From Octopus vulgaris (lineage: Eukaryota), in contig OX597819.1 in assembly GCA_951406725.2 (NCBI GenBank), positions 73,594,001 to 73,658,000 of the forward strand: 64,000 bases of DNA, read 5' to 3'. The notes under the pieces were generated by a model. It made no database searches and was not told where the DNA came from. It was given only the letters and a program-made list of their open reading frames with translations. Positions within the stretch are counted from its first letter, which is position 1. Each line of letters starts with the position of its first letter. Of this stretch, positions 11,101-63,071 are shown one piece after another. The translations under genes and the position numbers were made by a program.

Positions 11101-14100
11101 ATTCACTTGTAGTCTTCTAGGAGCTGAAGGGAAGTTGTCCAGAAATGTGAAATGACATTCAAGATGGGGACATATTTGTCGTCTGAATCGATTGGCACAG
11201 ACCATGTATGTGAACATCATCATCATCATCATTTAACGCCTGCTTTCCATGCTGGCATGGGTTGGATGGTTTGACTGAAAACTGGTAAGCCAAGGAGCCA
11301 TACCAGGTTCCAATCTGATTTGGCAAGGTTTCTACAGCTGGATGCCCTTCCTAATGCCAACCACTCCAAGAATGCTGTGGGTATTTTTATGTGCCACTGG
11401 CATGGGTGCCATTGATCTGACACCAGCATCGGCCATGACTACAGTCTCACTTGGCTTGACAGATCTACACAAACATGGTATATTGCCAAAAGTCTTGGTC
11501 ACCTGTCACTGTGAGGCCAAACTGCTTCCATGAGGCCAAACTGCCTTCGTGAAGCCAAACTGCCTCCATGACGCCAAACTGCCTTCGTGAGGCCGAACTG
11601 CCTTTGTGAGGCCAAACTGCCTTCGTAAAGCCAAAGTGCCTCTGTGAAGTCAAACTGCCTTCATGAAACCAAACTGCCTCCATGAGGCCAAACTGCCTCC
11701 ATGAGGCCAAACTGCCTTCATAAGACCAAACTGCCTTCATGAGGCCAAACTGTCTTCATGAGTCCAAATTGCCTTTGGGAAGCCAAACTGCTTCTGTGAG
11801 ACCAAACTGTCTTCGTGAAGTCAAACTGCTTCCGTAAGGCCAAACTGCCTTTGTGAAGCCAAACTGCATCTGTGAGGCCTTACTGCCTCTGTAATAGTAT
11901 GTTGAAAATTAATTCAATGCATACAGTAGAAACAGCTTTGAATTAAAATAGGCATCTGTGTATCATATCTAATATATGTACACCTTTGACAGACATCTTT
12001 CATAGGAAGTTAATTAGAAAATAGATTCTTGGTTAATTAGTATTTCTAATAATGCCAATGTATATAGCAACAGTTGACATCACTAAAGATATCACACCTC
12101 AAATTTGGCATCCCTGCTCAAAAAACTACAAGAATACTACATGGTAGATGTAAGGTACTAGCAAGAAAAATTATGATATTCTGAACATGATCCAAGCTGC
12201 CATACTCACTCATGAGAATTTATAAAAAAAAACAACAGCATACAACATTTTTTTGTTACTTTCATATGAAAGTGACCCTTATTTCAAAGCCTTTATTGGA
12301 CTCCTTTACTTAGAAAACACAAAATTAGCATAAGTTTTTAGGTTCATTAGAAACCAATGTATATTTATTTATAGTGGTGGTCACTTTGAAAACTCAAAAT
12401 GGTAGCCATGCAGGTGTCTTTACCAAAGCCAGCCTTAATTTTTAGATTCTCCATTCTCTAATGATTCTAGAAATGTACAGGCTTATTAATTGATGCCCAA
12501 AACTTCTGAAGCTGACTATAAGTAAAATTCTTTATATATTGGAGTGAAATTTCACAAAACCATTGCAAGTTAACATAACATGTAGATCCTATGTATATAA
12601 CCAAGTCTCAGCTTTTTGAGGAATTCTAAAACCTTGTATTATTTCACTAATCATGTCCGTTGATCCTTTATGATATAAAATGACACACACACACACACAC
12701 ACACGCACACACTGGTTGTGTGACTATGGCATCATTGAACCACATACTACATACACTTAAGCCTTGTCACAGCTGCTGTGTAGTAACCCACATCCTTGTC
12801 CCCATATAAGTGTTTAGCTGGTTATTGCATGAATTGAAGTGTTTAGCAGTCAGAATGACATTTAAATGTAAGAAACGTTTATAAAAACTCTCCACACTCC
12901 ATCACTTGGGTTAGATTAATTAATCAGAAATAGTTGACTTGTGCCTAGCATAGAAAACAATGTAAAACATTTTAAAAAATGGATAAAATATAAAGATTAG
13001 TTGAGTCTTTTTTTGTTTTTCAAACAACTTCTTTAACTCTTTAGCATTTAAACTGATCAAAATAATCTACCTCTCCATCATTGAATCTTAAAGCCATAAG
13101 ATAATGCATGAATAATTCAAAACAATGTGAATAAAAATGCATTACATTTGACAGAATAACCTGAATGCTAAAGAGTGAAAGACTTTTCCCTTGCACCATG
13201 TGAACCAATTTACCTTGATCTAGAACTATGCAATGAGTTATGAACCATTGTAGAAATTGCTTTAAGCTGTCGTACATAGGCTGTAAGCTATTTTAGAAAT
13301 AGCTTACAAAAAAAACCTGTTTATTAATCGTATTTGTTTTTAACTATTCATTAGGTCTTATTGTAATTTGCCTCTGTCTCCTCCCATGTCTACAATCAGA
13401 TTTCCCATGCTAATACATCTGGAAATATTTGTATTGAAGCAGCTGTGTTTTATATAATCCAGCTGCTACCAACTGACCTGTGAAATAGAGTTTAAACTTG
13501 TTACACGTACAAACTGGTCCAAGCAGTAGTGTTATTATGGACATTGTCCAACAGCTCTGAATGTATCTCCTGTAGTGAAATATTAATTAACTACTAAGGT
13601 TTTCAAATGAATGATATTAGACATTCTAAGCACAAAATTGATTCAATTAAATCTAAGTGATTAATTAAGTTGTGGAGTTGAAAGACTACAATTAAAAATA
13701 TCAAGAATAATTTATTGTATCTAATTCATTTTTAATGGCTGAACTCAAAGTAGAAAAATTATAAATAACAAGGTAAATATTGAGTGAAACACATTTTGTA
13801 TAGAAAAAGTCAAGGGCTGTCCATGACTTCAACTCAGTATTATTATTTATAGCCTTGTCTACTTGAAGTTCAACCATTAAATACAAATTAGTTCTTGTTC
13901 TCTCAAAGTTTCTAAATTTTGATGATACAAACAACTTCCATTTATTGTATTTAATTTAAGAAGCTGGAGTGGCAGGTATTCTGTGGAATTACAGATAAGG
14001 CAGTTTACTCGGCTGACAAAATAGAAAGGCAGTCGAAATCTTGAGGCTGAGTCTGTTGCTTTTTTGTAACTCAAACTGATACTTGTAATATTTCATACCA

Positions 14101-30224: not shown

Positions 30225-31534
30225 TGCTCTTTCATTGAATATTCTGACCCAGTTTTTCTTTTTGTTTTTCTCCCTTTTTCTTCTGAACTTTGTGTTTTCT
30301 TTTATTGACAACCACCTAACCTTTTTAGTAAATAAACATCTTCTGGTTAGGTAGATGGAAAATAATGATATTTTGAATTGCTTTTAGAATATAGAAATGA
30401 CTTGTTTTGAAAGACAAATCAAATAATCTTATATTACGGGAGATCAACATGTATATAGTCTTATATGTTTGCTATAGCAGCTGACCTGGTCTTGTGTCTA
30501 TTACTTTATTCATTTATCAGATTACAGTTATATACAATCATTATTTCCAAAACTGAGAATCTTTTATATATATATATATATAGTGAAGACATGACACGAT
30601 AGGTAAAGAAATTTGAAAAGAAAATACAAAACCGGTTATTTCTCCAAAAACTATGTTACTATACGCAAAATTTTATAATATTTTTCTAAATTAACAACTT
30701 AAATATATTCTTTAACCATAAAATACAAGCCTTCTGTAGTTTTTTCAATCTTTTTTGTTTATATATATATATATATTTGGAGAGGAGATTTTTTTTCTCA
30801 AAGAGTTAAGATTGAGAAGAAAACCTTTTTAGAAAGTCAAAAGACACTAACCTTTGGGAAGAGATTTCACAAAATCTCTGTGGCTTTTGCTTTTATTGAT
30901 GTGCAAGCGCTTGAAAATGTTAAGGACTTAAAGCGCTTGCATATCTATAAAAGCAAAAGCCACATACATTTTGTGAAATCTCTTCCCAATGGTTAGTGTC
31001 TTTTGACTTTCTAAAAAGGTTCTCTTCTTAATCTTAACTTTTTGAGAAAAAATCTTCTCTCCAAATATTATAAATGTATCAAGGAATTTCCAAAACACTC
31101 CATATATATATACATACATATATATATATATAGTAAAGTATTAGCAGATGCTCAGGGAAGGAAAGAAAGATGGTTTAATGTTTTGAGTGAAGCTCTTCTT
31201 CAGAAACAGAGGAAAGTCCAATAGAAAAGGAAGACAGAAGAAAAAAACATTGTTTACATTATTTACAATTGATGGATATTTGTCCTCATCTTGTTTGTTG
31301 TTAACACAACGTTTCAGCCTTAAATATAGAACTGTAGAGGAAAAAAAAATCGCCAACAATTCACATATATAGGCGCAGGCATGGCTGTATGGTAAGAAGC
31401 TTGCTTCCCAACCATGTGGTTCAGGGTTCAGTCCCACTATGCGGCACCTTGGGCAAGTGTCTTCTATTATAGACTGAGGCTGACCAAAGCCTTCTGAGTG
31501 GATTTGGTAGACGGAAACTGAAAGAAGCCCATCG

Positions 31535-31566
<32 letters not shown>

Positions 31567-34500
31567 GTGTGTGTCTGTGTTTGTCCCCCCGCTATTGCTT
31601 GACAACCGATGTTGGTGTGTTTATGTCCCTGTGACTTAGCGGTTAGGCAAAAGAGACTGATAGAATAAGTACTAGGCTTGCGGGGAGTTAGTCCTAGGGT
31701 TGATTTATTTGACTGAAGGTGGTGCACCAGCATGGCCACAGTCAAATGCCTGAAACAAATAAAAGAATACGTGTGTGTGTGTTTGTGTCTCCTTGTCTTC
31801 ATCTCATGTGGTAGATGTAAACAGGTGTCGCTGTAAAACAAGCAATGCTACTCACTTCCAACATTCAGCGGAAAACCTGTCCAGCCATGGGAAAATATTA
31901 CCTTGGAAACATACAAATGTTGGCAACAGGAAGAGCATCCAGCTGTAGAAAAAAAATCTCCCTCAGTAAACTCCATGTGAGCTTTGTAAGCATGGGGAAA
32001 TGGATGTTCTGTAAGAGGGGGCTAGTTGGCCTAGGGAAGCATATAGCTTATTAGTAAGGTTGTTTTTAGCATATAAACATAGGCATGGCTATGTGGTAAG
32101 AAGTTTGCTTGCCAGCCACATGGTTCTGGGTTCAGTCCCTCTGCATAGCACCTTGGGCAAGTGTCTTCTATAGCTTCATGCTGACCAAAGCCTTGTGAGT
32201 GGATTTGGTAGATGGAAACTGAAAGAAGCCTACCAAGTATATATGTGTGTCTGTTTCTCCCACATCATTAACTGGCAACTGGTGTTGGCATGTTTACAAC
32301 ACATTACTTAGCAGTTTGGAAAAAGTGACTGATAAAATAAGTACCAAGCTTTAAAATAATAGTACATGTGTCAATTCATTCAGCTAAAATTTCTTTAAAG
32401 CAATGCCCCAGAATGGCCGCAGTCTAATGATTGAAACACATAAAAGATAAATTTGAACATTTCACAGTTTTGTATGCATATGTCCTCATTAGTAAAATGC
32501 AGATATAATTAATGAAATTTCAGTTTGACTTTACTTAGCCTGTGTTATACTTTTGATAAATTTAATCATAAAAAAAAATAAATTATCAGAATGTTTATCT
32601 TTTTTTTTTGTGAGTTTTGTCCATATTTACACACATCTCTAATCCTGTGCCATTTGTTTTAAAATAGGTCTATATATTGGTCTGCAGCTGTTATTTGGTG
32701 ATCTTCCCTTCCTCAAATCTACCAACCCAATACCTTTCAATAAAGGTGCGGCATTAGTCCAGCAGTGCAGTTTCCCAGAGTCTTTATTGCCAGGTCAAAT
32801 ATTTTTTATTTATTTATTTATTTATCTCTATGCTATTTCCAAATTCTTGCTAATCTTAACAACATATTTCTTTGTGTCAAGGCACATGGCTCAGTGGTTA
32901 GGGCATTTGGTTCACAATCGTAAGGTCGTGAGTTCAATTCCTGGAGATGTGTTGTGTCCTTGAGCAAGACACTTTATTTCACATTGCTCCAGTTCACTCA
33001 GCTGGCAAAAATGAGTAATTGTAGATAAAGGGGCCAGCCTTGTCACATTCTGTGTCACACTGAATCTCCCTGAGAACACCATTAAGGGTACACGTGTCTG
33101 TGGAGTGCTCAGCCACTTGCACATTAATTTCTTGAGCAGGCTGTTCCGTTGATTGTATCAGATGGAACCCTTGTTGTTGTAACCGACGGAGTGCTTGTCT
33201 ATTTCTTAGTGAGGTTTATAAATATTTGGAAACCAATAATTTTTCAGGTCAATTTCTTACCAAAACTTCCTGCAATATCACGACAATGGAATTCTTTCTT
33301 TGCAATGAATTTAGATGTATTGGATGTTACAAGTTATTCTTGTGGAATCTCAGCTGAGATGATTAGATGCAACACCATCACAATCACCATTTTATATACA
33401 TTTTCCAAGCTGACATAGGTTAGAATGGCTTGACATGATCTAACAAACTAGATGACTGTGTCAAGCACCAGTCTATGGTTTGGCATGGTTTCTACGATTC
33501 GATGCCCTTGCTCTCACCAGCCACCTTACAGAGTGTACTGGGTACATTTTTGTGGCACTGGCATCTTACAAGACAAAATGCCTCCAATTAAGTGGGGTTG
33601 TCATTGACTGGGGAGATGTCATTATGCTGGGTAATGTGAGGTTGAACTATGACAGAAGGACAGAGACAGGTGTCTTGCTGTCAGGGAAATACATGGCTAC
33701 CCTGCACAATATACGGGTGGATGGGAGTTACTGGAAAGAAGACAAAGATGGTGTTTATGAGGTGTTGGAGCATAGAAGATGAGAATAAGACAGAATACGG
33801 ACATAGATTTGTCTAGTTTGGAAATTGATAGCATTTATGAATAGATGGAAGCTATTGATGTATGACAGGATGGGTTATTTTGCAGTTTGGTAAATCAGTT
33901 CCACAATTATCTGCAATGTTAAAAGTTAATCATAAAATAGCAGGAATGATATATCTAAAAGACACACTTTTCAAACAAAAGTTCATTCTTTCATCCCTTC
34001 CATTATTCATCATCATCATTTAATGTCTGTTTTCTATGCTGGCATGGTTGGATGGTCTGACAGGAGCTGCACCAGGTTCCATTGTCTGTTTTGGCATGGT
34101 TTCTGTGGCTGGATGCTCTTTCTAATACCCACCACTTTACAGAGTGCACTGGGCAGTGGCAGCTTGTGTTTAGGCACTGCAGAACTGCAGCACCCCTCGT
34201 TTCCACTCCATATTATTGATAACATTCAATATGATGAATAGTATTTTTCTTTAATTATTTCTTTATACTTGTACATTACATAATCCTTAAGCTTAACTTC
34301 AGTAGCCATCCCCTAGTTTATGAAAGAAATACAAAAATCCTTGTATAGAACTGTGCTCTTCACAGTTCCATCTACACACTGTTTGGCTGTTGTGCGTATG
34401 CTTACATGTCTGAGATAAGAAACTTCACATAAGGGAGGGAGAGAGAGCACTGCGTGTACGACAGTTCCACGTGAAAGGTAGTGTCTTTTTTTGACTGTGT

Positions 34501-37500
34501 TGTGCTTAAAAATGTGTTTATATTCTTGAATGTGATAAAGTGTAGAATTAGATTATTATCCTGGGTCCAACTTCAGTGTTGCTGCCTGGATTTGAAAAAC
34601 AGGGCACATTCCCCCCCCCCCCCCGTATTTTGTGATTTGGGGGGATTTTTGAAAAACAAGGGAGAATTTGTGACAGTGTTCAGTGAACAGATTATACACA
34701 CTACTTGGTAGTGGCTAAAACACGAACTGATCAAGTTTATGTATAAATTTCCTTTTTATATGTTTGTTTCTTTTTACACAATATTAAAACAATGGCGAAA
34801 AATTTTCTGAAGAGCAGACCCCCCCCCCACTAATTTTATCTACGAGCTGCCACTGGTTCTTGGTGCTTTTTATGTGGCACCAACACCAGTGCTTATTAAC
34901 TAAGAAAAAAAAATGTGTAAGACTCTGCAATGGTCAGGGGACTTCTACTCCATTTAATAGGAATAGAAGAAAATAAAAGATTAAAATAAATTGACATGAT
35001 ATTTATGAAAAAGGGTCATCTAAGTTGTTATTAGTTGTTATTATGAGGAACCCACAGAAAAGTGGGACAGTAAGCCAAGGAGGATTCCAACAGATCAGCC
35101 AAGCATAAGTCTGGAGTAGAGTTGCTCATATACAAAGTAGAGTGGGTTGCTCTCACGAAATGGTTAAGCATTTTTAATACTGGTGTAAACTGTCACATTT
35201 TGACGGGTTACCTGAAACACACCAGGGATCCGGTTGTATGAAAGGAACATGGCAGGCACTATTTCATTGGCACCATTTTAAGTGTATCCATAATCATTGA
35301 ACCAATTACTTCTGTGCCACTTTTCTGCTCATGCATGATTGCTGAAGCTATTTAAAACCAATATCATTATTACAATTTTAATGGTCATCATCATGTGACA
35401 TCTGCTCTCCTTGCTAGTTTATGACCAGAAAGAGTAAAGGCACAAATACAAGTAGCTGAAATGGGGTTCTTCCAAAATATCTCTGGGCTAATATTACTCA
35501 TCAGGGTGCATAGCTTGGAGATCAGGGCCTCTCTCCAGGTTGAGTTGCTACTTCTCTGCTATGAGGGGTCACAGTCCAACGGACATGTGGTTAGAATGTT
35601 GCAGGAAAAAATTGCAAGACAGATTCTTGAAGCTGAACCAACCAACAGGAGACCTCGGTTGGTCATGTTTGGGAATCCAGCAGGAAAGAGTAATGACGGC
35701 TGCTTTTGATTGGCCCCTAGCAAGGAGGTGCCTGAGGACTCTATGCCTCATGACTAGGAAGGAGGTGCCTGAGGACTCTACGCCTCATGACTAGGAAGGA
35801 GGTGCCTGAGGACTCTACGCCTCATGACTAGGAAGGAGGTGCCTGAGGACTCTACGCCTCATGACTAGGAAGGAGGTGCCTGAGGACTCTATGCCTCATG
35901 ACCCCTCCCCCACAGGAATAGTGGACAGAGGAATGGCTGAATAAATGTTTTTCTTCAATGCTTGTTTGTTAGCACTTTTTTTAAATTTAATTTTTTCTTA
36001 CATTAGGTGATGTACGGAATGATCTGTATATAGTTTTGTCCCATGGAGAGTTCGAGCGAGGCAATAAGACATCGGCAAAGAATGTAGAAGTGACAATGAA
36101 AGCTTTTGATAGCATCGGAGAATCAATTCCTGTAAGTTAAGAAATCATTACCTTGTCTTATATTCTTGTCAGAGCATAAATAAAATGGCGATTTTCCCTT
36201 GTATTTGATTCAGCTGCATCTGTATTGTTTTCTATCAATAACAATACATTTTCATATCTATTTTTGCATGCTAGCTTGGATTAGATGTATATATTACCAA
36301 GGCATTGTTATATAGTTGGCTGCCTTTACAGTCACTAACCCTCATCTGTTTATCAGGTTAGGGATTTTTTTTCTTCACACACAAAATGAGTGGACAATTT
36401 GTTGACAGCAACACTGCTAAAGCTCCCAACATTTGCAGAGCATAAGTGTAAAAACATAGCTGCATACACATGTACACACCTATGCAAAACAGGCTGGCTT
36501 GATGGGCAGGGCAATACATATATATATATTTCTGTCTGTTTATACAGTGTAACTTCTATCCTGTAATGAAATGTGTGTAACATGGAATTAAAAACGGCAA
36601 ATTTTCCAACCTTTCTTTTAATATAAACTTACTCTGCAAATATGATTCTCCAGAACCCCCACCTAATATATATGCTTCATTGAAAATTAACATTCTGAGT
36701 GTGTGTGTGTGTGTGTGTGTGTGTATACACATATACAAACATGGGTGTGTGGTGAGTAGCTTGCTTACCGACCACATGGCTCTGGGTTCATTCCCACTGC
36801 ATGGCATCTTGGGTAAGTATCTCCTACTATAGCCTTGGGCTGACCAAAGCCTTGTGAGTGGATTTGGTTGATGGAAACTGAAAGAAGCCCATCATAGATG
36901 TGTGCGTGTGTCTGTTTTTGTCCCCCCACCATCACTTGACAACTGATGTTGGTGTGTTTACATCCTTGTAACTTAGCAGTTTGGCAATTGAAGCCAATAG
37001 AATAAGTACTAAGCTTACACAGAATAAGTCCTGGGGTCAGTTTATATATATATATATAAAACAAATTATTATCTCTATTTATTGTAATTCATGAGGATTG
37101 TGAATTTATGGCTGTTTTTTCCTTCCTTTTTTCTGCAGGATTGTATTTATCGAGGTATTGGTGAACCACCATCTTCATATTATCATTCCACCGTTTTCTA
37201 TCACTCCAATAACCCAAAATGGAAGGAAACAGTCAAGGTGAGTTATAACTTTTCTGACTAAAATATTCTCATCTATGGATTACCATCTTTGCACACCCAT
37301 ATTCCATCATTTACTAATATTCTGTATTTTTTCTCCTCAGAAACTCCCCACCACCACCACCAATACCATCTTTCCTTCGTCTTTTCTGCCATTGATACAA
37401 TGGTTTTGGTTCCCCCAATCCTATTGGTGTAAATCTAAATGCTGTAAATTTGTTTTTTTATATATAAGTTACACACTCTCCACTCCCGATCTGCTCTTAT

Positions 37501-40500: not shown

Positions 40501-43500
40501 AAGAAAAAATAGGTGGCAACTGGAGAGATTAGATAGGGTTGAGGGGTGACAAGTTATGCAGATGAGTCTGAAAATAGGGAGTGGAGATAGCTGATAGAGC
40601 AGAAACGGGGGGTGAGTTGGGGTGAAGAGTTGCAGAATAGACAGTATTTGTCTATCTCATATATAGTGTGTGTGTGTGGGGGGGGGGGTCTGTTCTGAAG
40701 CTGTGACGATGCTGCTGTTGATGATTTGCAAATTAATGTTTTTGAATCATGTTTTTGAAAGAGAAAAGTGGGCGGGGTGCGGTGGGGGTTTGGCTCTCTT
40801 GACTAATTCAGAGTTACTCCTGAACTGTTGCAATTTATGCTATAGATGTTATAAATTGAACTTCAATTGATGTCTGCCTGAACTAAAGAGGACTGTCTGA
40901 GCCCTTCCCACCCGGTTTCAGTTTAGATAAGATGGGTTTGCATTTACTGAGGCCCATGATTGTTCCTCTCTGCTGAGTGCAAAGAGTGAACCTGTTTTCT
41001 GAATACCCCAGGAGTTGATTGAGTTACCCAACTTCCAACTTGGGTAGTTTTCATGTAAGCATGGACGGGTATAACTGCTGGGAAGGAAGGTTGTTTATAT
41101 GATGTAGTGAGCCCTTGGTAGTTTTGGTTCACTACATCTCTCTCTCCTTCCTCCCCAAAAGCATTTCTTTCGGTTCTGCTTAAAAGTTTGTCTTCGTTTG
41201 ATGTCCTTTATTGGTAATTCTTGCTGTTTTGAGGTATTCTTAAGAAATTCAATCATCCTAACATTGTCTGTGTAACAAAATAACATTACTTTTTCTCTCT
41301 GTTACAGTGTGATACCCTTGTAAATTTAACCTGCATGGATTATTTAAATCTCCCACAAAGTCCTTCGGAAACCTCTCTTTCATCTGTGTCAGCCATCTAC
41401 CAACGGAATTCCAGAGACACTTTGACCATCAGTTCCTGCCTTTGTTCCACAAAGTTTACACAAAACAGTAATATAGAACTTTACCTTTTTTTCTAACATT
41501 GTATTTATTTATTCTGTGAAGTTTCCAAGAGTGGACCTTGGAAGACTCCCTCCTTTGGTGAATTTTTTTTTGTTAGAATTTATACCATCATTTTTACTGC
41601 TTACATGCTTCTATTTATGTAACCCCACATTGTACTGTCCTGTACCAACCCTAATGTTTTTCGTAAGCCCTTAGTGGTAAATAAAAGAAGCATTATTGTT
41701 GTTTTTTGTCTGTGCTAATGACATTGTGGGAGGGTTGGGGTAGCCCAGTCAGCAAGTCTGTGCAGCAGGAGATGACTAAATTCAGTTTCTATGACTTTTT
41801 TATATTATCTATTTATTTTGTAGCTTAAATCAGTGATTTCTAAAGTGGGTGGTGGAAAGATCCAGTTGGGGTGGGGGGCATTGAAGAAAAATGGGGTAAC
41901 CAAAATGGGGCAATGGATGTAAAAAAAAAAACAATAACAAATTAATTAGGTTAAGTTTTCATTGTGAAACACTGTTGTTTTGAATTTGCTGCAGAAAATG
42001 GTTTATGTCTGTGATGGTGAGTGGAGGGGGTGGTTGGAATGTGGCCTTAGAACCAAGGGGGCGGCAGCCTGAAAATGTTTGGTAACCACTGGCTTAAATT
42101 ATCTTGTTCTTATTGTAAGCATATTATTCTAAAAATCAGGACAGGTGCTGGCATGGCAGTGTGGCTAGGGATCTTGCTTCCCAACCACATGGCTCCAGGT
42201 TCCATCCCACTGCATGGCAGCTTAGGCAAGTGTTTTTTTTTTATGGCAATGTGGTTAAGAATTTTGCTTCCCAACCACACGACTCCAGGTTCAGTCCCAC
42301 TGCATGACAGCTTGGGCAAGTGTTTTTTTTTTTTAATCAGTATTGTAGCCCTGGACTACCTTATGAATGTATTTAGTAGACAAAAACTGAAATTTGCAAT
42401 CTGGGTGCTAGGTTCATTCTCGCTTTGTGGAATCCTGTGTAAATGTTATTTTCCACACCTTCAGACCAATCCATATCTTGGAAGTGAAACTGGGTAGATG
42501 GAAACTGTATGGAAACCTATTGAATGGATTGTAATTAAATGTCCGTTTTCCATGCTGACACATGGTTTTACAGGAGGTGGCAAGGCCAGAGAGCTGCACT
42601 AGGCTCCAATGTCTACTTTGGAACAGTTTCTATGGCTGGATACTTTTCCTAATGCCAACAACTTTACAGAGTGTACTGGTGATTTTCATATGGCACCAGT
42701 ATGGTGGGTGGGGTTGTTATGTAGCACCAGCACCACTACTCGATGCAAGGTTGTCAAGTAGCATGCAAAACAAGGGGCTTTCTACTAAGAGAAGGAGAGG
42801 AATCAAGAGAAGTGGCTGTATCTGCTTGAGAATTATGTTAAGGGTTCACATGCCCCTTTCTTGATGACCCTAATGTTGTTATATTGAAGCCGTTGAATAT
42901 GGTGAAATAATTTGTCGTTTCATTTCTTTGTTTGTTTTTTTTTTAATTTGCAGAAGATCTCCTTGATATATTGCAATGGCGAATGAAAACTGACAAAATT
43001 GAACAAAGTTTGGAGAAGCTGATGAGTATTAATGGAAGAGATATTGTCAGGGTAAGCAGAGAGCTTTTCTGTAAAAGTTTTCTTTTTAAGATATTTCTCA
43101 GTTGTCAGAGCATTTTGTAAAGCATCACAGCTCCAAACATACACATCACATGACCATACCAGTGCAGTTGTTTCTCTCGCACACTACATCTGATGCCTCT
43201 TCTGCCCAAATATTCTCTCAAGATATGCTCTGTCATACATGCACACTGACATTGCACATCCAGTGAAGCATACTAGCTTCATTTCTTTCAAGCCTTCGCA
43301 TGTCCTCTGCATTCACAGCTCAAGTTTCGTTGCCATGTAGCATGGCTGTTGACACACGGGCACCATACAGTCTGCCTTTTATTCTGAGAGAAAGGGCCTT
43401 TGTTGCCAACAAAGGTAGAAACTCTCTGAACTTTACCCAGCCTATTCTTATTCTAGCAGCTATACTCATAGAGCATCCACCCCCACTACTAACCAAGTCA

Positions 43501-44396: not shown

Positions 44397-47300
44397 CAAG
44401 GTGGTAGAATCATGAATACGTCGATAAAAATGTTAGTGACATTTCTTCTGACTTGATGATCTGAGTTCAAATGCTGCCAAGGTTGACTTTACCTTTCATA
44501 CTTTCGAGGTCAATAAAATAAGTACCAGTTATGCACTGGGATTGATGTAATCGACTTAACTCCTCCTCTGAAATTGCTGGACTTGTGCCAAAATTTGAAA
44601 CCATCATCATCATCATCATCAAGATGGTGAGCTGGCAGAAATGTTAGCATGCTGGGTGAAATGCTTTGCGGTATTTTGTCCATCTTTACGTTCTGAGTTC
44701 AAATTCCGCCAAGATCAACTTTGCCTTTCATCCTTTCAGGATCGAAAAATTAAGTACTAGTTGTGTACTGGAGTCGATCTAATTGACTTGCCCTGTCCTA
44801 CAAAATTTCAGGCTTTGTGCCTAGTATAAAAAAGATTATTATTATTATTATCACCATCTAAAGATTTACTGTAGTAGTACAATATGTTATTATAGCTTAT
44901 TGTTTATTTTCAGTATTTACATGACATCTTGGATGCTTTGTTTGACATGTTCTGTACAGAATATTTGGAAAAATATAATCAAGTTGTATTTGATGCCTTG
45001 GTAAGTAGAAAAGTAAAGAATATGTGAGCTGAAATAAGTAAAAGACGTGTGTGTGTGTATGTGTGTGTAATGTCATTTTGCTATTTCTTTGAGTTACAAA
45101 GAATCTTTATCCAATAATTATATATATAAAAAAAAAAAATTCAATGTTGATATCTCACAATTGTACTAATCTATATTTTAGGGATGAGGAATTATGTACA
45201 TTATCTACAATAGGTATCCTCACCTTATTTGTTGTTATCACAACATTTCGGCTGATTTACTTTCCTGCCTTCATCAGGTCTTCTGGTGGAATTTCAACCC
45301 CAGCTCTTTATTTGACTAATGGGATACCCTGTTCTCATTCCTAAGGTATTCTTTTTTTACTGATGTTATTTTTTTGTTGATATATTATTACCCAAGTCTC
45401 TGCCTGGGATTGAACTCAGAATCTGACGGTTAGTAGCCCGCAATCTCATCCACTACGCTATATGCTATATAATATCAACAAAAAATAACATCAGCAAAAA
45501 AATAATACCCTAGGAATGAGAACAGAGTACCCCATTAGTCAAATAAAGGGTTGGGTTTGAAATTCCACCAGAACACTTGATGAAAGCTGGAGGGTACATC
45601 AGTCGAAATGTGCTAACAACAAACATGGTGAGGACATCTATCTGTCCATTGTAAATAATGCTCACAAATGTACTTCTAAAATAGGTTTCTGCTTTTTGTT
45701 TTCATGTTCATACCTTATGTACTGGAATATAGGAGTTGGGTATACTCATGTGTCTGTATCATTACCTTTCACTTCTGTCTTTTTTTTTTTAACAGGTCCA
45801 TGTTTTTTATTTGTTAACAAACCGTACATTCAAGCAATATGTTCCTGGCTTCCAGTCATATCTCACTGACACTTTTTCCTCATCTTTAGTGTACAGGTAC
45901 GTTATCTGTTTCGCTTTGAAAGCTCCTTGCCTTCACCTTCAAATGGCTGTTACATCTCAATATTTGTTCTTCATTTCATTTCATTTCTATTACAAATGTT
46001 GCTTCCCAAATATTTGATTCTTCAGAAGTGGTTCACTTTCCAATCACATTGGTTCAGGCTCAGTCCCATTGCATAGCAACTTTGGCAAGTGTCTTTTACT
46101 GCAGCTCCAGCATGGCCAAAGCCTTGTAAGTGGATTTGCTGGACAGGAACTGAAAGAATCCCATCGTGTGTATGTGTTAGCATCTCCTCGTCTTGACATT
46201 GTGTGATGGTTATGAATGAACGTCACCAGTTTCCAACCTTCCATTAAAACATGTCTGGCCATGAAGAAATAGTGACTCACTTGGAAACCGTTTTGTGAGT
46301 AATTTTGAGAGTAAATCTGATATGTTTGGCTCTGTGGAATCCATCCTGGCAGTCAATCATCATCATTTAACATCCGTCTTACTTGCTAAAATGAGTGGGA
46401 TGGTACCACAAGAGCCAGCCAGACACAGTCGACTTCAGTGGAATTTGAACTCAGAATGTAGTGACAGGCAAAATGCTATTAAGCATTTTGTCCAGTGTGC
46501 TAACGATTCTGCCAGCTCACCGCCTTAATAATTATGACGGCGGTGGCAATAACCCTTTCTACTAAAGGTGCAAGGCCTGAAATTTTGTGGGAGGGACCCC
46601 AGTTTTCCACTGGTACTTAATATATCGACCCTGAAAGGATGAAAGGCACAGTCAACCTCAGCGGAATTTGAATTCAGAACGTAGCAACAGGTGTAATACC
46701 AATAAGCATTTCGTCCAGCATGCTAACAATTCTGCCAGCTCACCACCTTAATAATAATAATGATAATGATACATCTGTTGTTTCTATTTCAGACATCTTC
46801 TGCTCTGTTTGAAAGCGAATCTTGATAAAATCATCAATGGCAGTCAAGACAGAATATTAAAAGAGATGTTAAAGGTGATTCTTTTGGGGTTTTTTTTTTG
46901 GTCTTTTTTTTTAAAACTTTTTCTATTTAATGATCTTTTCTGGATTCCCTCCTCTTATTTCTTCTGTAGGGTTTATACTTATGTCATATGTAAACCCTTG
47001 TGTAGCTGTATGGTTGAGAAGCTTGCTTCCCAGCCATGTGTTTTTAGGTTCAATCTCACTGCATGGCACCTGAAGCAGATATCTCCTATTGTAGTCTTGG
47101 GCTGGCCAAAGCCTTGTGAGTAGATTTGATAGATGGAAACTATGTGGAAGCCTGTCATATATATATATATATATATATATAGTTATACCTGATGCCAGTG
47201 CTGTCTGACTGGCACCCATGCCAGTGGCATGTAAAAAGCACTGTTCGAGCGTTGGGCCTCATGGAGGCAGTGATGTCAAACCAAGCGAGATCGTAGTCAT

Positions 47301-55982: not shown

Positions 55983-57124
55983 TCCTTAGATTCTCGAATG
56001 ATGCTGCTGCCTCTCTGTATGTCTCAAATCAAACGCTGTTTCATTGGGAAGCAATTATATACCCTGGCTACAACCATTTTGGGTGATATCCTTTGCTTCC
56101 TCCATTCACTAAAATTAGTAAGTAGCCTTTATTTTCATGACCTTTTTTTTTTTGTTGTTGTTTAGTTGTTCCATGTTGTGGAACAAATTTGAAGACAAAA
56201 CCTCAAATGCTTGTCTCTTGAAATCAAAAAGAAAAACTCTGCATAGAAGACATTGCTTGATCAGTTCTTACCCTTTTGTTTGTTCCAGTCACTACCCTGT
56301 GACCATGCTGGAGCAGTGACTTGTCAAACAAATGTCATCCCCATTATCTTTTTTTAAGTCTAGTACTTGTTTTATCTTCTTTGCCAAACCACGTATATTT
56401 ATTGGGATGTAAACAAACTAACACTGTTATCAAGAAGTGCTGGATGGGCAAACACAAAAATGCATGCTCTCACACACACACATGCTCACATGCATGCATG
56501 CTCACCCATGATGGGCTTCCATACAGTTTCCATCTACCAAATCCACTCAGAAGGCTTTGGTCAGCCTGAGGCTATAATAGAGGTCATTTGCCCATATTTC
56601 TGGTTTCCTAGGAACAGCATGAACAAAATCTCTATTGGATTCTTGCTAAAATGGTAATAGACAACACACGTAGAAAAAAAAAGATAAAAATATTCAAAAT
56701 AGACAAATGATCACATTGCAGCTTTGTGGTCAAGTGTGTTTAAGACTCATTGTTAATGGTGTCCACAATAGGTACAGTTCTATATTCAAGAGATGAGGAA
56801 CTATGTACATTATTTACATTTTATGGATATTTGTCCTCATCTTGTTTGTTGTTAACACAATGTTTCGGCTGATATATCCTCCGGCCTTCATCAGGTGTCT
56901 TGGAATAATTTTGAACTTGGGTTCTCATTCCTAAAGTATTTTTCAATGTTGTTGTTGTTGTTATTATTATTATTATTATTATTGTTATTATTATTATTCA
57001 CGTCACTGCTTGGAATCGAACTCGGAATCTTGGGGTTAGTAGCTCCTAACCATGGGCATATGGTATAGTGGTTAAAAGCGCGGTCTACTAACCCCAAGAT
57101 TCTGAGTTTGATTCCAGGCAGTGG

Positions 57125-57171
<47 letters not shown>

Positions 57172-60100
57172 TAGAAAAATACCTTAGGAATGAGAACCCA
57201 GGTTCGAAATTTCCCCAAGACACCTGATGAAGGCTGGAGGGTATATCAGCCAAAACGTTGTGTTAACAACAAACAAGATGAGGACAAATATCCATCAAAT
57301 GTAAATAATGTCCACAATAGGTGTTGTTAACTTTTGATTTTGATCGCAGTGAAAATGGATTTTGCAATGAAACAAGTGTGTGAACCGAGCACTTCATCTT
57401 GTAAATGAAGAAGGCCTTGACTCTTTTGCAGTTGAGGAAATTATTAATGATATTTGTTCATTGGACAATGAGTTTACTCTTACACCAGCAGTGATACGGG
57501 CAATCAAATCAGTGAATGAGATGAGGAGAGCAGTGACCCGCTTAAAGAAATAAAGTAGTTGAGAGGATAGGCCTATCATTGTTATTCTCCTGAATTGTTT
57601 TGTGAATCTGTCCATTTAAGTTTTCCTGCAATGGTTACTCTTGAGCTGTGTCTGCAATTATTTATTTTATTTTGCTCAGGAGCCTAAGTAGAGGGAGAAG
57701 TTAGACATAGGGGCCCAGGTCTGAGAGGGTTAATAATGACAATTATTTTACAAAATTCTTTATTATTTTGAAAATCAATTGAAACAAATGCAGAAATATA
57801 CTAACAAAAGGGTTTTTAAAAAAGAGTTCTTTCTGAAATCTATTTTCTCATGCCTATAATGTTAAAATTATAAAATTAGGATGAATCTGAATGTCAGCTT
57901 GAGATTTTCATTAGAACCTGTATTTGGTGTTTATTTTGTTTGAGTTTTATTTCTTGTTATCCAATCATTAAGTTATTCCCTCTTGGACCTGCCTCGGGGT
58001 CCTGGGACATGACCTCTTCATACTCCTGCCCTTCCCAGAGCAAGCTGCTGGCTTATTGCTGCTTGTACAAGCATTGGGCAAAGACTACAGTATATTTTTC
58101 AAATGGACTCCTCTACTTAAGATCTGAATGCTCCCTTTGTTAACCAGCACAACAGAGATGCTGTATGGTTATTCTTTTAAATCCTTCTCGTATTGTCTCT
58201 AAGATGTAGAAAAGAGTAGAGAAGAAAAAGTCATAAAGAAAGATTGATAGAAGTAGAGGCAGTATACAAAGATATGGAAAGAGAAAATGGGCAAGAGAGA
58301 CTGTTTCCAAGGAAACAGTAGAAGAAAAGAGATGCAAGTGTAAGACATTAAAAGATAAGCCTTTGTCACAGCGAATAAAATCTTGAAAATTACGTTTTGA
58401 TAAAAAATTAATTGGAATTATAAGAATTTTCTAGAATTGGAATTATAAGAATTATCTAGACAGTGTTGATTTTAATAATTGCATTCTTTTATTAGAAATT
58501 CCATACAACTAATAAGCAGCTTTCTTATTAAAATATAGATACACGCACACACACACACACAAACCTGCACAAACCCTGATTGGAACCGTTTTAGCTTTCA
58601 ATCCTCTCCTTCTCTAAAAAATCTCCTTCAATGTTATTCCCTCTGAACATTTTTCATTTGTTTGACCCATTTTTTTGCCAGACTTCCTTTTTTATGACTT
58701 CAGAAATTTCAATTAATTTCTTAATTTAATTCTTGTTTTCAATTGTTTTAATTGTCTTCTTGGTTTATTTCATTTCAGAAAGATCCTGACTCTGTGTCTG
58801 AAGAGATCCGTATTGTTATAACTTCAATTTTTCAAGTAGTGTTAAGAGCTATTGATGTTTATGATATTTCCGTGAGTATTATTATAACAGCCTCTTCTTT
58901 TGTAAATGTGAAGTGGTGGTCTTCCTTCTTAACCTACTCAGCTTTTGAAGTTCATCACGTCAACACTAAGCACATATTTGATGAGTCACAGTTGGTTGTT
59001 TTGGATAAAGTTCCATTTGAAAGCTTTATTCCAGTGGTTCCCAACCTTTTCACTACTAAATTTTCCCACTGACCCCTAGTACTACCTTTGCAGACTACCA
59101 GGGGTCCGTGGGCCGCAAGTTGGGAACCACTGGTTTATTCATTTGTATTCAGACTGCCTTTAAAAAGAAAAAAGACAAAATGGTCATAATTTGCATGTTT
59201 TAAGTCCATTCGATTTCTTTGATTTCTTTGGCATTACTACCATTTCTCTGGTATTACTACCTGTAATATTTTAGGGATAAGTTGTGTGTTGTCTTTGAAT
59301 TAATATACTCTGATTCCTCTGAAATCTATGGACTTTGGCAACAAAACTCGACATAAATACCATATTTTGTGTCATGGAAGACACATCTTGACTTTGGAAA
59401 TGTAATTCTAGGAAAATATTTTTCACACATATCAAAGCTCCATCCATATAATTGGGAGGTGATAGCAGAAGTACACTAAATGCCTGTTATCCAACAAAAC
59501 TGGTGGACGTAGCATCGAAGTGCTTGTCAAGAGGTGTTGTTTGGTTCTTGATGTTGGTGGAAAATGTCTTTCTAGAGCTGCATGTAAAAATAATTTACAA
59601 CACTTGGGATCAATTAACTGACATTTTATTTACTGCAGACAATGATTTCTATGTTGGTTTTTGAATGACAAACAAGGACATTGACACTACCGGGGGTGGG
59701 GGGAGCCATACTGCTGGGATCTATGACAATTTAACTGGTATATAGCAATCTGTGTCTGGCCTATTCATTGATGGCAAAATTTGTCTCTTCTAAACAGCCA
59801 TGAGAATGGAAACACATCAAACGACTACCTCAGCATTCTTGAGATTCCCCCAAAATCCCACTTTCACATAGGGCTCAATGAGAAATTCTAGAAAGTTGAA
59901 TTTGGATTTGGCGTGACACAGGTTGGTTGGTTTAATTGGCCTATCATGTGAAACAACAGTGGCTTAGCCGTGATGTTTACTTGGCTATCCAGTGATCCGA
60001 TTTCAAATCTGCTACATACTCATATCAGGTTTTGAACAAAATCATCAGATATTGATTACCTGTCGGTTATTTGCTGCCAGGTATTATTGTTGTACACAAC

Positions 60101-63071
60101 ACCATGTTCTGCACTTTAACTCTCTTGTAATTATCCATATGACACACCATAATGCTTGGACCACACCCAAAGTGTGACTTCCAAACCACTGAATACAGTT
60201 CCAAAGGAGATTTTATTTTGGATTTACACAACTACCCTTTTGTTTTCTTTGCTTTTTACAGATTTATCATTTCATTTGAGCTTTTGTTTTTTTGTTTTTT
60301 TTTGTTAGCGTGCTGTTGTTAGCTGTTTTGTTGAAATGTTGAGAATCATGGATGATGATCACTATACTGCCTTATTTGAAGCTTATGCTCAAGGAATTCC
60401 TCTAAGGGTCAGTATCTCTTATATTTTTCAAACCCTTATTGTATATATTATAAAGAGTTTATAAATACACGCATTTTAGTACACTTTTTGTTACAATATG
60501 TGCAGGCACAGGTGTAGCTGTGTAGTAAGAAGTTTGCTTCCCAACCACATTGTTGCATGTTCAGTTCCACTGTGTGGCAACTTGGGCAAGCGTCTTCTAT
60601 TATAGCCTTGGGCTAACCAGAGCTGTGTGAGTGGATTTGGTAAATGGAAACTGAAAGAAGCCCATTTTGTGTGTGTTTACAGACATACACGATGGGGCAG
60701 TAACAGGTGGGTTGGAACCAAAAGGGTTAAACTTTCCACTAAGGAATATGTCTGTCAACTGATTAACCCTTTTATTACCATATTTCTGACCAAATGCACA
60801 TTGTCTTTGATTTAATTAATTTTTGAAAATAATGAAGAATTTAGTAATAATCAGGTATTTGGAATATAAATTAAGATGGAATTTAGATGGAAGGTTTTAA
60901 TTTAGATTCCTTTAAAACAGGAAATTTATCTCATAGAACTAAGGGTGGGCTCGAGGAGGTTTTTTTTTTCAAAAGAGTCGAGTTTCCAGTTTATTCTTGC
61001 ATGTTCTTCAAGGTGTTTATTTATCAAGTACTCAATGTGGTAACCAAGTGAACCCTGAACTTTGATTAACTTTTTAGCATTGAAACTGGCCATTATCCAG
61101 CCAGAATATTCTAGTTGAAATTTACAGAAAAACAAAAGATGAAGACAGGTGTGTAAACAACAAGCAGGTGTAATAGTTTGATGCTCAGGAAGGTGAGAAA
61201 GTCTTTTACGCTTCGAGCCTACGCTCTTCAACAGAAAGGAACACAAGGAAATAAAAACAGAGAGAATAAAATTATTCTCCCCGTTCTGTGTTCAAACTGG
61301 CTAGATCTGACCTGTCACATGTTCTTCTAAAAATAAACAATCACATCATCGAAATCTCAAAGCCACAAGATAATGCATGATTAGTTCAGAGCAATATGAA
61401 TAAATAAGCATTACATTTGACAGAGTTATCTGAATGTTAAAAGGTTAAATATATAAAAGTTTTAAATCCCAATCATTTCTTTTTTTTTATAGGAATTATA
61501 TTTTTACATTTTTGTTTTTCAGGAATTTCTAAACCTGGTCTTAGTTACATTTCATAATTTAATCAATTTTGACACTTTCCCCTGTGATTGGTCTGTCATG
61601 CGAATGGTTATGAACAAGTAAGAATTTTGTTTTGAATTTCTCATTATTATTGTGATATTAGAAGAATCTGATTTTTGTTACCAGTAAATTGTATGGTCAT
61701 TGTTGTACTAAAAACTTGATCGGTTCAAGTCTTTTTTATAGACATTCTGAGTGTATTGTCTGTCATATAGACATGACAGATTATTATTATTATTATATAT
61801 GAAGGTGGCGAGCTGGCAGAATCGTTAGCATGCTGGGCGAAATGCTTAGTGGTATTTTGTCCGTCTCTACATTCTGAATTCAAATTCCACCATGGTCGAT
61901 TTTGCCTTTCAGGGTTGATTAAATAAGTACCAGTTATGCACTAGAGTGAGGGGGTTTAATGTATTCAACTAACCCGTCTCCTCAAAACTGCTGGCATTGT
62001 GCCACAATTAGAAAAAAATTATTCCTATCTGCCAACTGGGATGATGGCAATTACACTCCTTTATATTCAGTGCCATAATTGTGCTCCCTCTCTCTTTATA
62101 TATATCAGGTCATCCCATAAGTTCTGTCTGATTTTATCCTTTTTAAAATTGAATGAAATTTAATAGTATTTTAGAATGTCTAATGGAATCAGAAATTATT
62201 TTTATGCATTTGTGTACATTTAAACAAATTAAATATTATTTTACAGAATAATAGAATTAAAATTTCTTTGATTAAAACCCTTTCTAATATGACTACATCA
62301 TATGCCCATGAGTATATGGTGTAGTGGTTAAGAGCACAGGTTACTAACCCCAAGATTCTGAGTTTGATTCCAGGCAGTGACCTTAATAACACCGAAAAAT
62401 ACCCAAGTTTTTTTTTTACTATTGCGAAAGAATAATAAGGCTGGAGGGTATATCAGCCAAATTGTGGTGTTAACGACAAACAAGATGAGGACAAATATCC
62501 GTCAAATATAAATAACGTAAATGTCATTACTTATCTAATGTTTTCTGTTATCGTTTCAGTGTCATATTGACTTCAATTCACTATTTTGCTCGTGCTCTGT
62601 CTGACAACTTCTTACTGGACACCAACTTTGAATACCAAGTAAGTTTAGTGAAACATTTTCTGTTGTTTTTTTCAGCTTGTTAAAACTCCAGTTTTCTGTC
62701 AAACAGTGCTATGAGCTGAATTACTTATGTAATCCTGTGTTACAATATATGGAGTAACCTGCTAGAAATAGCAGTCAAATATTTCTCCAATTTCTCTATT
62801 GTTTTTTTTGTTTTTTTTTTAAGGAAGGATATATTGGATAATGCAATCTAAGATATATTATGTCTGAGAAAGACAGGATGGGCACAGATGGAATGTCTTT
62901 GAGTAGCAATCTACTTGATTAGACTGACTTGGGGCTGAAAAAAAATGCTTTCTTTAAATTTGAACTCAATAGAGGTGATCTATCTAGTAGACCAGTGGTT
63001 CCCAACCTGGGATCCATGGACCCCTGGTGGTCCGCAAAAGTAGTACTGGGGGTCCGTGAACTAAATTCAAA

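Follow-up and report, generated by a model that had tools for sequence, protein, structure and literature searches.

The 64,000-nucleotide window analysed here (Octopus vulgaris, contig OX597819.1, positions 73,594,001 to 73,658,000) carries, inside a 14-bp duplication, two arms joined head to head, namely, a minus arm running from 56774 to about 57052 and a plus arm at 57050-57311. The first-pass annotation had read this palindrome as a tRNA-like head fused to a hammerhead ribozyme, that is, as a separate, non-autonomous element which RNA polymerase III (Pol III) drives and Penelope machinery mobilises. The parts it named, namely, A box, B box, (AAT)n linker, hammerhead stretch and inverted second arm, are all present in the sequence. 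We conclude with high confidence, however, that the palindrome consists of two 5'-truncated pseudo-long terminal repeat (pseudo-LTR, or pLTR) ends of an autonomous Penelope-like element (PLE). Granted this, initiation by Pol III at the head appears likely, and the account towards which we lean joins the two statements, with PLE end pieces and with an RNA that would be made by Pol III from a tRNA-derived A/B-box cassette. Such a cassette in the pseudo-LTR of a protein-coding PLE is the unusual part.

The parent element and its insertion footprint

The genome (2.8 Gb in 227 contigs) was searched with the body sequence of the arms, giving 349 candidates, of which 40 were scored and were 95-100% identical; most of the 30 loci retrieved by this search have a second, inverted arm. 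Sequence upstream of the head was common to three loci (L013, L018 and L020), and a search with it returned 30 loci where it leads on into coding sequence, whose translation contains reverse transcriptase (RT) motifs and an endonuclease-like C-terminus. Walking upstream, the tail that ends some arms passes directly into the N-terminus of the same open reading frame (ORF), as seen in L116, L114 and L200. The last of these contains a whole pLTR-ORF-pLTR unit, and L114 is likewise evidence for a partial tandem. The autonomous Penelope-type element sharing the 3' part, proposed as a check in the first-pass annotation, is found in the RT/endonuclease ORF units of L114 and L200.

A consensus of the retrieved copies, made by script, gives one frame of 835 codons in a unit of 2664 nt, in the order ORF, stop, a spacer of 30 nt, the tRNA-like head, (AAT)n and the next ATG. 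The stretch of head, (AAT)n and hammerhead is the pseudo-LTR, 30 nt past the stop of the RT/endonuclease ORF. The hammerhead falls at about codons 10-25, and hammerhead and tail both lie within the first 52 codons; what had been described as a conserved tail is coding sequence.

The protein was characterised as follows. First, a real open frame of 569 amino acids in one copy (L196) has 2735 homologs at E≤1e-30, and matches RVT_1 at E 2.7e-6 with 27.7 bits, just below the cut-off of 29.6. Second, the RT motifs of the family protein align with those of relatives; the closest proteins (P0001-P0008) are 53-68% identical, and one of them, P0003 (847 amino acids, 55% identical), has the same N-terminal peptide stretch over the hammerhead. 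Third, the endonuclease region aligns with homologs, with CxC, GET, EH and a later H conserved, and the homolog P0069 matches PF01541 at E 1.6e-5. Two results weigh against an autonomous element of this kind, namely, that Pfam calls no GIY-YIG domain on the family protein itself, and that no copy with an intact ORF was present among the copies examined, the longest stop-free RT stretch being 569 amino acids. By eye, no zinc-finger-like motif, whose absence is a mark of the Penelope/Poseidon clade, was seen between RT and endonuclease in the alignment with homologs; no relatives were found in viral contigs, and no close match among solved structures.

A sister subfamily has ORF, head and hammerhead in the same order, with the (AAT)n linker replaced and an in-frame 27-nt insertion before the hammerhead. 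It numbers 719 candidates genome-wide and is also present in the window at 45170-45660, as an inverted insertion with the head on the minus arm and a non-AAT linker. The copy number of the family itself was estimated loosely, in two ways: 4708 exact hammerhead-core matches, with a pattern that fits 4 of 42 ORF-linked arms, lead to about 50,000, and a single arm in 282 kb of unselected stretches leads to about 10,000. In a search of sequencing runs, no RNA run containing the family was listed, and runs under five organism codes contain 0.23-0.50 of the query words.

The insertion footprint was read from 102 mapped arms, drawn from three samples that had been selected without regard to 5' structure (45 from the hammerhead pattern, 50 from body similarity and seven from random stretches plus the window); arms that lay at a locus edge or lacked the 3' part were left out. 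Their 3' ends include 47 without the tail and 47 with it, the two ends lying about 33 nt apart. In 37 inverted insertions, taken from all loci retrieved to that point, exactly one tail is present in 28 (p 0.0013), and duplications of 11-15 bp with at most one mismatch flank 17, compared with 6 of 300 mismatched-flank controls. At the present locus the target-site duplication (TSD), TGTCCACAATAGGT, has exactly two occurrences in the whole window, at 56760-56773 and 57309-57322, as had been claimed. Genome-wide, perfect fold-back junctions occur at 351 loci and read-through arms number 375. Beside the no-tail end (e.g., in L025 and L010) there is a 9-nt unit whose copy number varies between one and six and which never breaks the frame of the ORF. 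The inverted layout, the tail on one side only and the duplications of 11-15 bp make up the footprint known from Penelope, and the earlier proposal of Penelope machinery is supported.

As for the origin of the second arm, arms of the same locus have 7 non-consensus bases in common (null mean 2.9, null maximum 9). Arm pairs agree at a polymorphic site in the head in 12 of 16 cases, where 8.1 are expected (p 0.044), yet the two arms of the present locus disagree there; either fold-back copying or two separate cDNAs may be at work.

Of the traits by which endonuclease-positive (EN+) PLEs are recognised, this family has a single ORF with PLE-type RT, the pLTR-ORF-pLTR order, an inverted 5'-truncated copy with a one-sided tail and a short TSD, and a hammerhead overlapping the ORF start; its GIY-YIG endonuclease is a candidate from the alignment with homologs. 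It is like PAc and Adineta Pen2a, as these are described (PMC11167929, PMC3846280), in its single ORF of about 840 amino acids with RT, a putative C-terminal endonuclease and a start overlapping the hammerhead, as well as in the optional 30-40-nt tail that is the ORF N-terminus, the inverted 5'-truncated pLTR, the short TSD and the two 3' ends. For PAc, the tail is reported to lie between two internal RT start sites, with both strands cut and extended and with the ORF starting in the hammerhead (PMC11167929), and the one-tail inverted layout has been described for Pen2a and other PLEs (PMC3846280, PMC8557442). The duplications differ in length, being given as 8-10 bp in Penelope/Poseidon EN+ PLEs and measuring 11-15 bp here.

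The tRNA-like head and the polymerase question

The best alignment of the head, among 27 distinct tRNA genes of eight isotype/anticodon classes, is to a genomic tRNA-Arg-TCG (score 63, z 9.4), in agreement with the claim that the head derives from a tRNA and carries A and B boxes. Among 27 related elements for which 250 nt or more of 3' sequence is available, no tRNA-like segment approaches it (best score 46, versus 63 here).

Two lines of evidence bear on transcription. First, 39 arms extend as far as the head; 33 of them go no further and six run on. In those that stop, the match ends 0-7 nt upstream of tRNA position +1 or starts a few bases inside. A start some 13 nt upstream of the A box is in keeping with a type 2 Pol III promoter. 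A head-selected sample of 30, in which one pair is duplicated and two loci are represented by both arms, was scored by script as 21 at the hotspot, seven slightly later and two read-through, and by-eye reassignment of three deletion-bearing read-through copies places 25 of 30 at the head. Second, runs of four T (T4) are entirely missing from the sense strand of the 2664-nt consensus unit, untranslated region (UTR) included. The probability of this under synonymous shuffling is 0.027; T4 runs are present in 43 of 44 related ORFs of at least 400 amino acids, and 12 T-matched control ORFs predict 6.5 of them (P 0.0015). The A and B boxes are kept in both subfamilies, with the linker after them completely changed. 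The 5'-stop cluster and the T4 absence together suggest, from sequence, Pol III transcription of a protein-coding retrotransposon.

Several observations weigh against Pol III. The sole T4-free control ORF, in L207 (2601-4744), has no tRNA head and a T-rich UTR, and it also has the highest best-segment identity of the 44 controls (48%); a T4-free ORF can therefore arise without a Pol III promoter. The T4 count was made on a script consensus and compared with single assembled copies, and decayed family copies carry 0-4 T4 runs per 2-2.7 kb. Because other PLEs are described as having pLTR 5' palindromes, with no tRNA cassette (PMC3846280), a hairpin alone might make the 5'-end hotspot. Three unstranded RNA-seq runs, from one study and labelled with a species other than that of the best-matching DNA run, have no pile-ups of starts or ends, and 73-79% of the placed reads continue into unlike sequence, which resembles read-through; being unstranded and without such pile-ups, these data are uninformative on Pol III or cleavage. 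Finally, the translation of a 2.5-kb ORF from an uncapped RNA would need explaining.

Part of this evidence belongs to an alternative that we regard as rather unlikely, in which the same autonomous PLE is transcribed by polymerase II (Pol II), the head is an old passenger of the UTR, derived from a short interspersed nuclear element (SINE) or a tRNA retrocopy, and the hotspot comes from RT pausing or from self-priming at the GCCC-AY-GGGC motif. A head followed by (AAT)n does resemble an inserted SINE with its tail, but A and B boxes have been retained in both subfamilies despite the complete change of linker, and no alternative shared body follows the head in 30 sampled copies. Similarly, pLTR 5' palindromes and self-priming are described in rotifer PLEs (PMC3846280), and the agreement of arm pairs (12/16 versus 8.1, p 0.044) fits some fold-back copying; against this, many head-ending arms lack a fold-back junction, their ends lying 0-7 nt ahead of tRNA +1, and the arms of the present locus differ at the polymorphic site. 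The Drosophila virilis Penelope promoter, described as internal and TATA-less (PMC2377424), and the T4-free and headless L207 count for the passenger, and the absence of T4 from the entire unit, UTR included, counts against it.

Under Pol III initiation at the head of a PLE, which we prefer, insertions could arise as follows. A tandem copy would be transcribed from about 6 nt before tRNA +1, likely by Pol III, and the RT/endonuclease would nick both strands with a stagger. Priming inside the template, as with anole PAc in vitro, would use one site near ORF nucleotide +122 and another near +155. At the sites nearest the RNA 5' end it would produce cDNAs of 250-290 nt that run off the RNA end and that may join head to head via their self-complementary GCCC-AY-GGGC end or microhomology, and at the downstream pseudo-LTR it would produce ORF-containing copies. 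Hammerhead cutting would be unnecessary for insertion. We offer tentatively, as possible more than probable, an extended version in which the element captured a tRNA-Arg-type promoter into its pseudo-LTR and purged Pol III terminators from its 2.5-kb ORF, a single Pol III RNA being both mRNA and template. It would shed tens of thousands of SINE-looking stubs as by-products, and so would show a SINE in the course of being born within its autonomous element.

Known systems resemble this arrangement in part. The promoter of Pen2a is described as Pol II type, with TATA/initiator-like elements (PMC3846280), and that of D. virilis Penelope as TATA-less, internal and Pol II type (PMC2377424), unlike the tRNA-derived cassette found here. 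Schistosome repeats of the Sm-alpha kind also have a Pol III-type promoter upstream of a hammerhead, such that an upstream unit would drive the downstream one; those repeats, however, are reported as short non-coding tandems, whereas the present element is coding and has a PLE footprint (PMC6765202). The TRIMp3 elements Cassandra, Helenus and Ajax likewise carry a small-RNA-gene promoter in the terminal repeat, possibly acquired via SINE insertion, but they are described as non-autonomous LTR elements of 0.3-1.3 kb, in contrast to an autonomous PLE of 2.66 kb, and their autonomous partners are argued to need Pol II (PMC10886601). The literature searched yielded neither a tRNA-type promoter in a PLE nor this family, with the provisos that the supplement lists of PMC4209133 and PMC8557442 may include it and that Repbase and Dfam were not compared.

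The division set out in PMC10886601, in which autonomous retrotransposons are assigned to Pol II and SINEs to Pol III, would be broken, if this is confirmed, by a PLE that has a tRNA-type promoter and an ORF free of terminators. Translation of an uncapped RNA would then become a question, possibly giving the PLE hammerhead a role. Moreover, thousands of copies have sharp ends, which mark the start of the RNA and the two RT start sites and make the origin of PLE inverted insertions directly testable.

Short copies and the hammerhead motif

Most copies are short and begin at the head, and an intact head could drive transcription of any of them, so these copies might be thought to form a SINE with a tRNA head and a hammerhead end, driven by Pol III and amplifying itself with Penelope proteins supplied in trans. 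We consider this improbable. The head is part of the autonomous element, within ORF-bearing copies, between ORF stop and ORF start (L114, L200), and in two subfamilies. Median non-CpG divergence is 3.8% in both 41 ORF-linked and 40 head-start arms, which have polymorphisms in common; the single alignment column that differs between the two classes (p 0.004) is a gap-rich CpG site. A between-minus-within distance test gives p 0.84, and 41 of 81 arms have a nearest neighbour of their own class, although this number of arms leaves room for some short copies to have been re-mobilised. In the head-selected sample, the Penelope body follows the head in 24 of 30 and no other shared body does. Since divergence is equal, lineages are not split and no other body follows the head, short and long copies share source elements. 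The RNA of PAc must reach ORF nucleotide +172, past RT start sites at +111-118, according to PMC11167929, whereas the short copies end at the RT start sites; by analogy, we infer that they may be poor templates and mostly dead ends. The earlier claim of a tRNA head fused to a hammerhead as a separate non-autonomous element is therefore not supported, and tens of thousands of tRNA-SINE-looking repeats in this genome are Penelope ends.

Short tandems were found in two of 30 loci, namely, a head-to-tail trimer in L007 (1121-1676) and a dimer in L019, both consisting of body and tail without a head, possibly from repeated priming or a small circular template; the headless trimer is a point in favour of a SINE. 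A metazoan non-LTR retrozyme was also considered, a class described as non-coding tandem monomers with a classical type I hammerhead that spread by circular RNA (PMC7229834). It was rejected, since the unit belongs to a coding element and short tandems are rare. A separate tRNA-derived SINE was set aside on the position of the head in an autonomous element and the lack of an own lineage among head-start arms.

Ohshima and Okada are said to have described the octopus tRNA-derived SINEs OK, OR1 and OR2 in 1994. A tRNA-derived head is common to these and to the present family, as set side by side by description only, and one of the names OK, OR1 or OR2 may already cover the short copies; OR1 and OR2 are of tRNA-Arg origin. 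OR2 has been named a CORE SINE (PMC4758252), and hammerheads in a squid genome are mentioned without detail in PMC6962438.

As regards the ribozyme, the minimal core is complete in the family majority, and its cut site reads GUU. GAAAC is subject to CpG decay, and the sole other core polymorphism is at the free position 7 (14/135). In 20 distinct motifs beside related ORFs the core is kept and the stems are paired with different letters, stem II having at least 4 pairs in 18 and stem I at least 3 pairs in 18. The CUGAUGA/GAAAC core asked for in the consensus is thus intact in the family majority, but no compensatory stem change was found within the family, and in the sister subfamily stem I is shortened by a mismatch without compensation. 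Core and paired stems, in the family majority and in related elements, agree with the proposed minimal type I hammerhead of the PLE kind. Metazoan PLE minimal hammerheads (min-HHRs) are described with a CUGAnGA core, an extra base before stem II, a G10.1-C11.1 pair, a short stem I and a palindromic, loopless stem III (PMC4209133), and in all of these traits the present motif, known from sequence, is alike, with no essential difference.

Cutting is predicted only as a dimer or with the help of protein. For min-HHRs, pairs on opposite strands 100-700 bp apart have been described and dimer action predicted (PMC4209133), and for PAc, cleavage is reported as protein-assisted and dispensable for insertion in vitro (PMC11167929). 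That the palindrome itself is the functional unit, its arms supplying a dimeric or two-stranded ribozyme switch, is hardly credible, for although both arms contain hammerhead sequence and min-HHRs are predicted to be dimeric (PMC4209133), both motifs are broken, the arms have decayed at the family rate and, the arms being on opposite strands, one transcript would contain one hammerhead and its antisense.

The locus and other repeats of the window

The locus itself is an ordinary dead copy (Table 1). Compared with the family majority, the plus arm is nearly complete from tRNA +1 (57054) and lacks the 33-nt tail. The inverted second unit that had been noted is present, but it is a partial and not a full copy, reaching about 57052 with most of the A box lost, and it alone carries the tail. 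Neither hammerhead is complete, the intact motif being that of the family majority: the plus arm has AAAAC in place of GAAAC, and in the minus arm stem II contains a C-A mismatch and AACGUU has become AACAUU. The suggested Rfam check returned no match, with zero hammerhead or tRNA hits at the locus, in four family loci or across the window; the motif here rests on core letters and on comparison with related elements. ARAGORN made no tRNA call at the locus, and with relaxed settings on related loci it returned nothing beyond noise; folding of single arms was uninformative (z -1.1, -0.5 and +0.6).

Table 1. Parts of the palindromic insertion, in window positions.
Feature	Positions	Strand	Remarks
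Left TSD copy	56760-56773	+	14 bp
PLE tail	56774-56806	-	33 nt; parent ORF codons ~41-52; minus arm only
Minus-arm body	56807-56953	-	ORF start and damaged hammerhead; ATG at 56928, CUGAUGA from 56894, GAAAC from 56866
Minus-arm linker	56954-56998	-	(AAT/AAC)n
Minus-arm tRNA-like head, 3' part	56999-57052	-	B box 57023-57012; A box mostly gone
Head-to-head junction	57050-57060		At remnant of self-complementary GCCC-AY-GGGC motif
Plus-arm tRNA-Arg-derived head	57054-57128	+	Predicted Pol III type 2 promoter of pseudo-LTR; tRNA position +1 = 57054; A box 57061-57071, B box 57104-57115
Plus-arm linker	57129-57169	+	(AAT)n
Start of parent RT/endonuclease ORF	57190-57311	+	First ~40 codons (MRTQVRNF start, ATG at 57190), to no-tail 3' end
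Minimal type I hammerhead inside ORF	57219-57264	+	Stem I GACAC/GUGUU; CUGAUGA 57224-57230; stem II 57232-57251; core AAAAC (G12 lost); GUU; predicted cut after 57259
Right TSD copy	57309-57322	+	First 3 nt match element end too

Two further copies of the family lie in the window. In one, at 62292-62522, the fold-back junction has decayed and the second arm is reduced to a stub; the other, very short, at 31249-31335, consists of a 70-nt minus arm joined to plus-strand sequence that comprises no more than the final ~17 nt of the tail, and it seems to lie within a 12-bp A-rich duplication. At 42153-42332 a different tRNA-like head is present as two tandem copies of 90 bp, both of which close with a T run, and A/B-box cassettes of other repeat families occur at 32887 (+), 23283 (+) and 18525 (-). 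Minisatellites are present at 11511-11888 (a 19-mer in about 20 copies) and 35717-35902 (a 37-mer in five copies, 97% identical). Outside the window, the family copy in L003 contains, inside its AAT linker and upstream of the matched body, the apparent 3' end of a long interspersed nuclear element with an (AACT)n tail, which we take to be of CR1 type.

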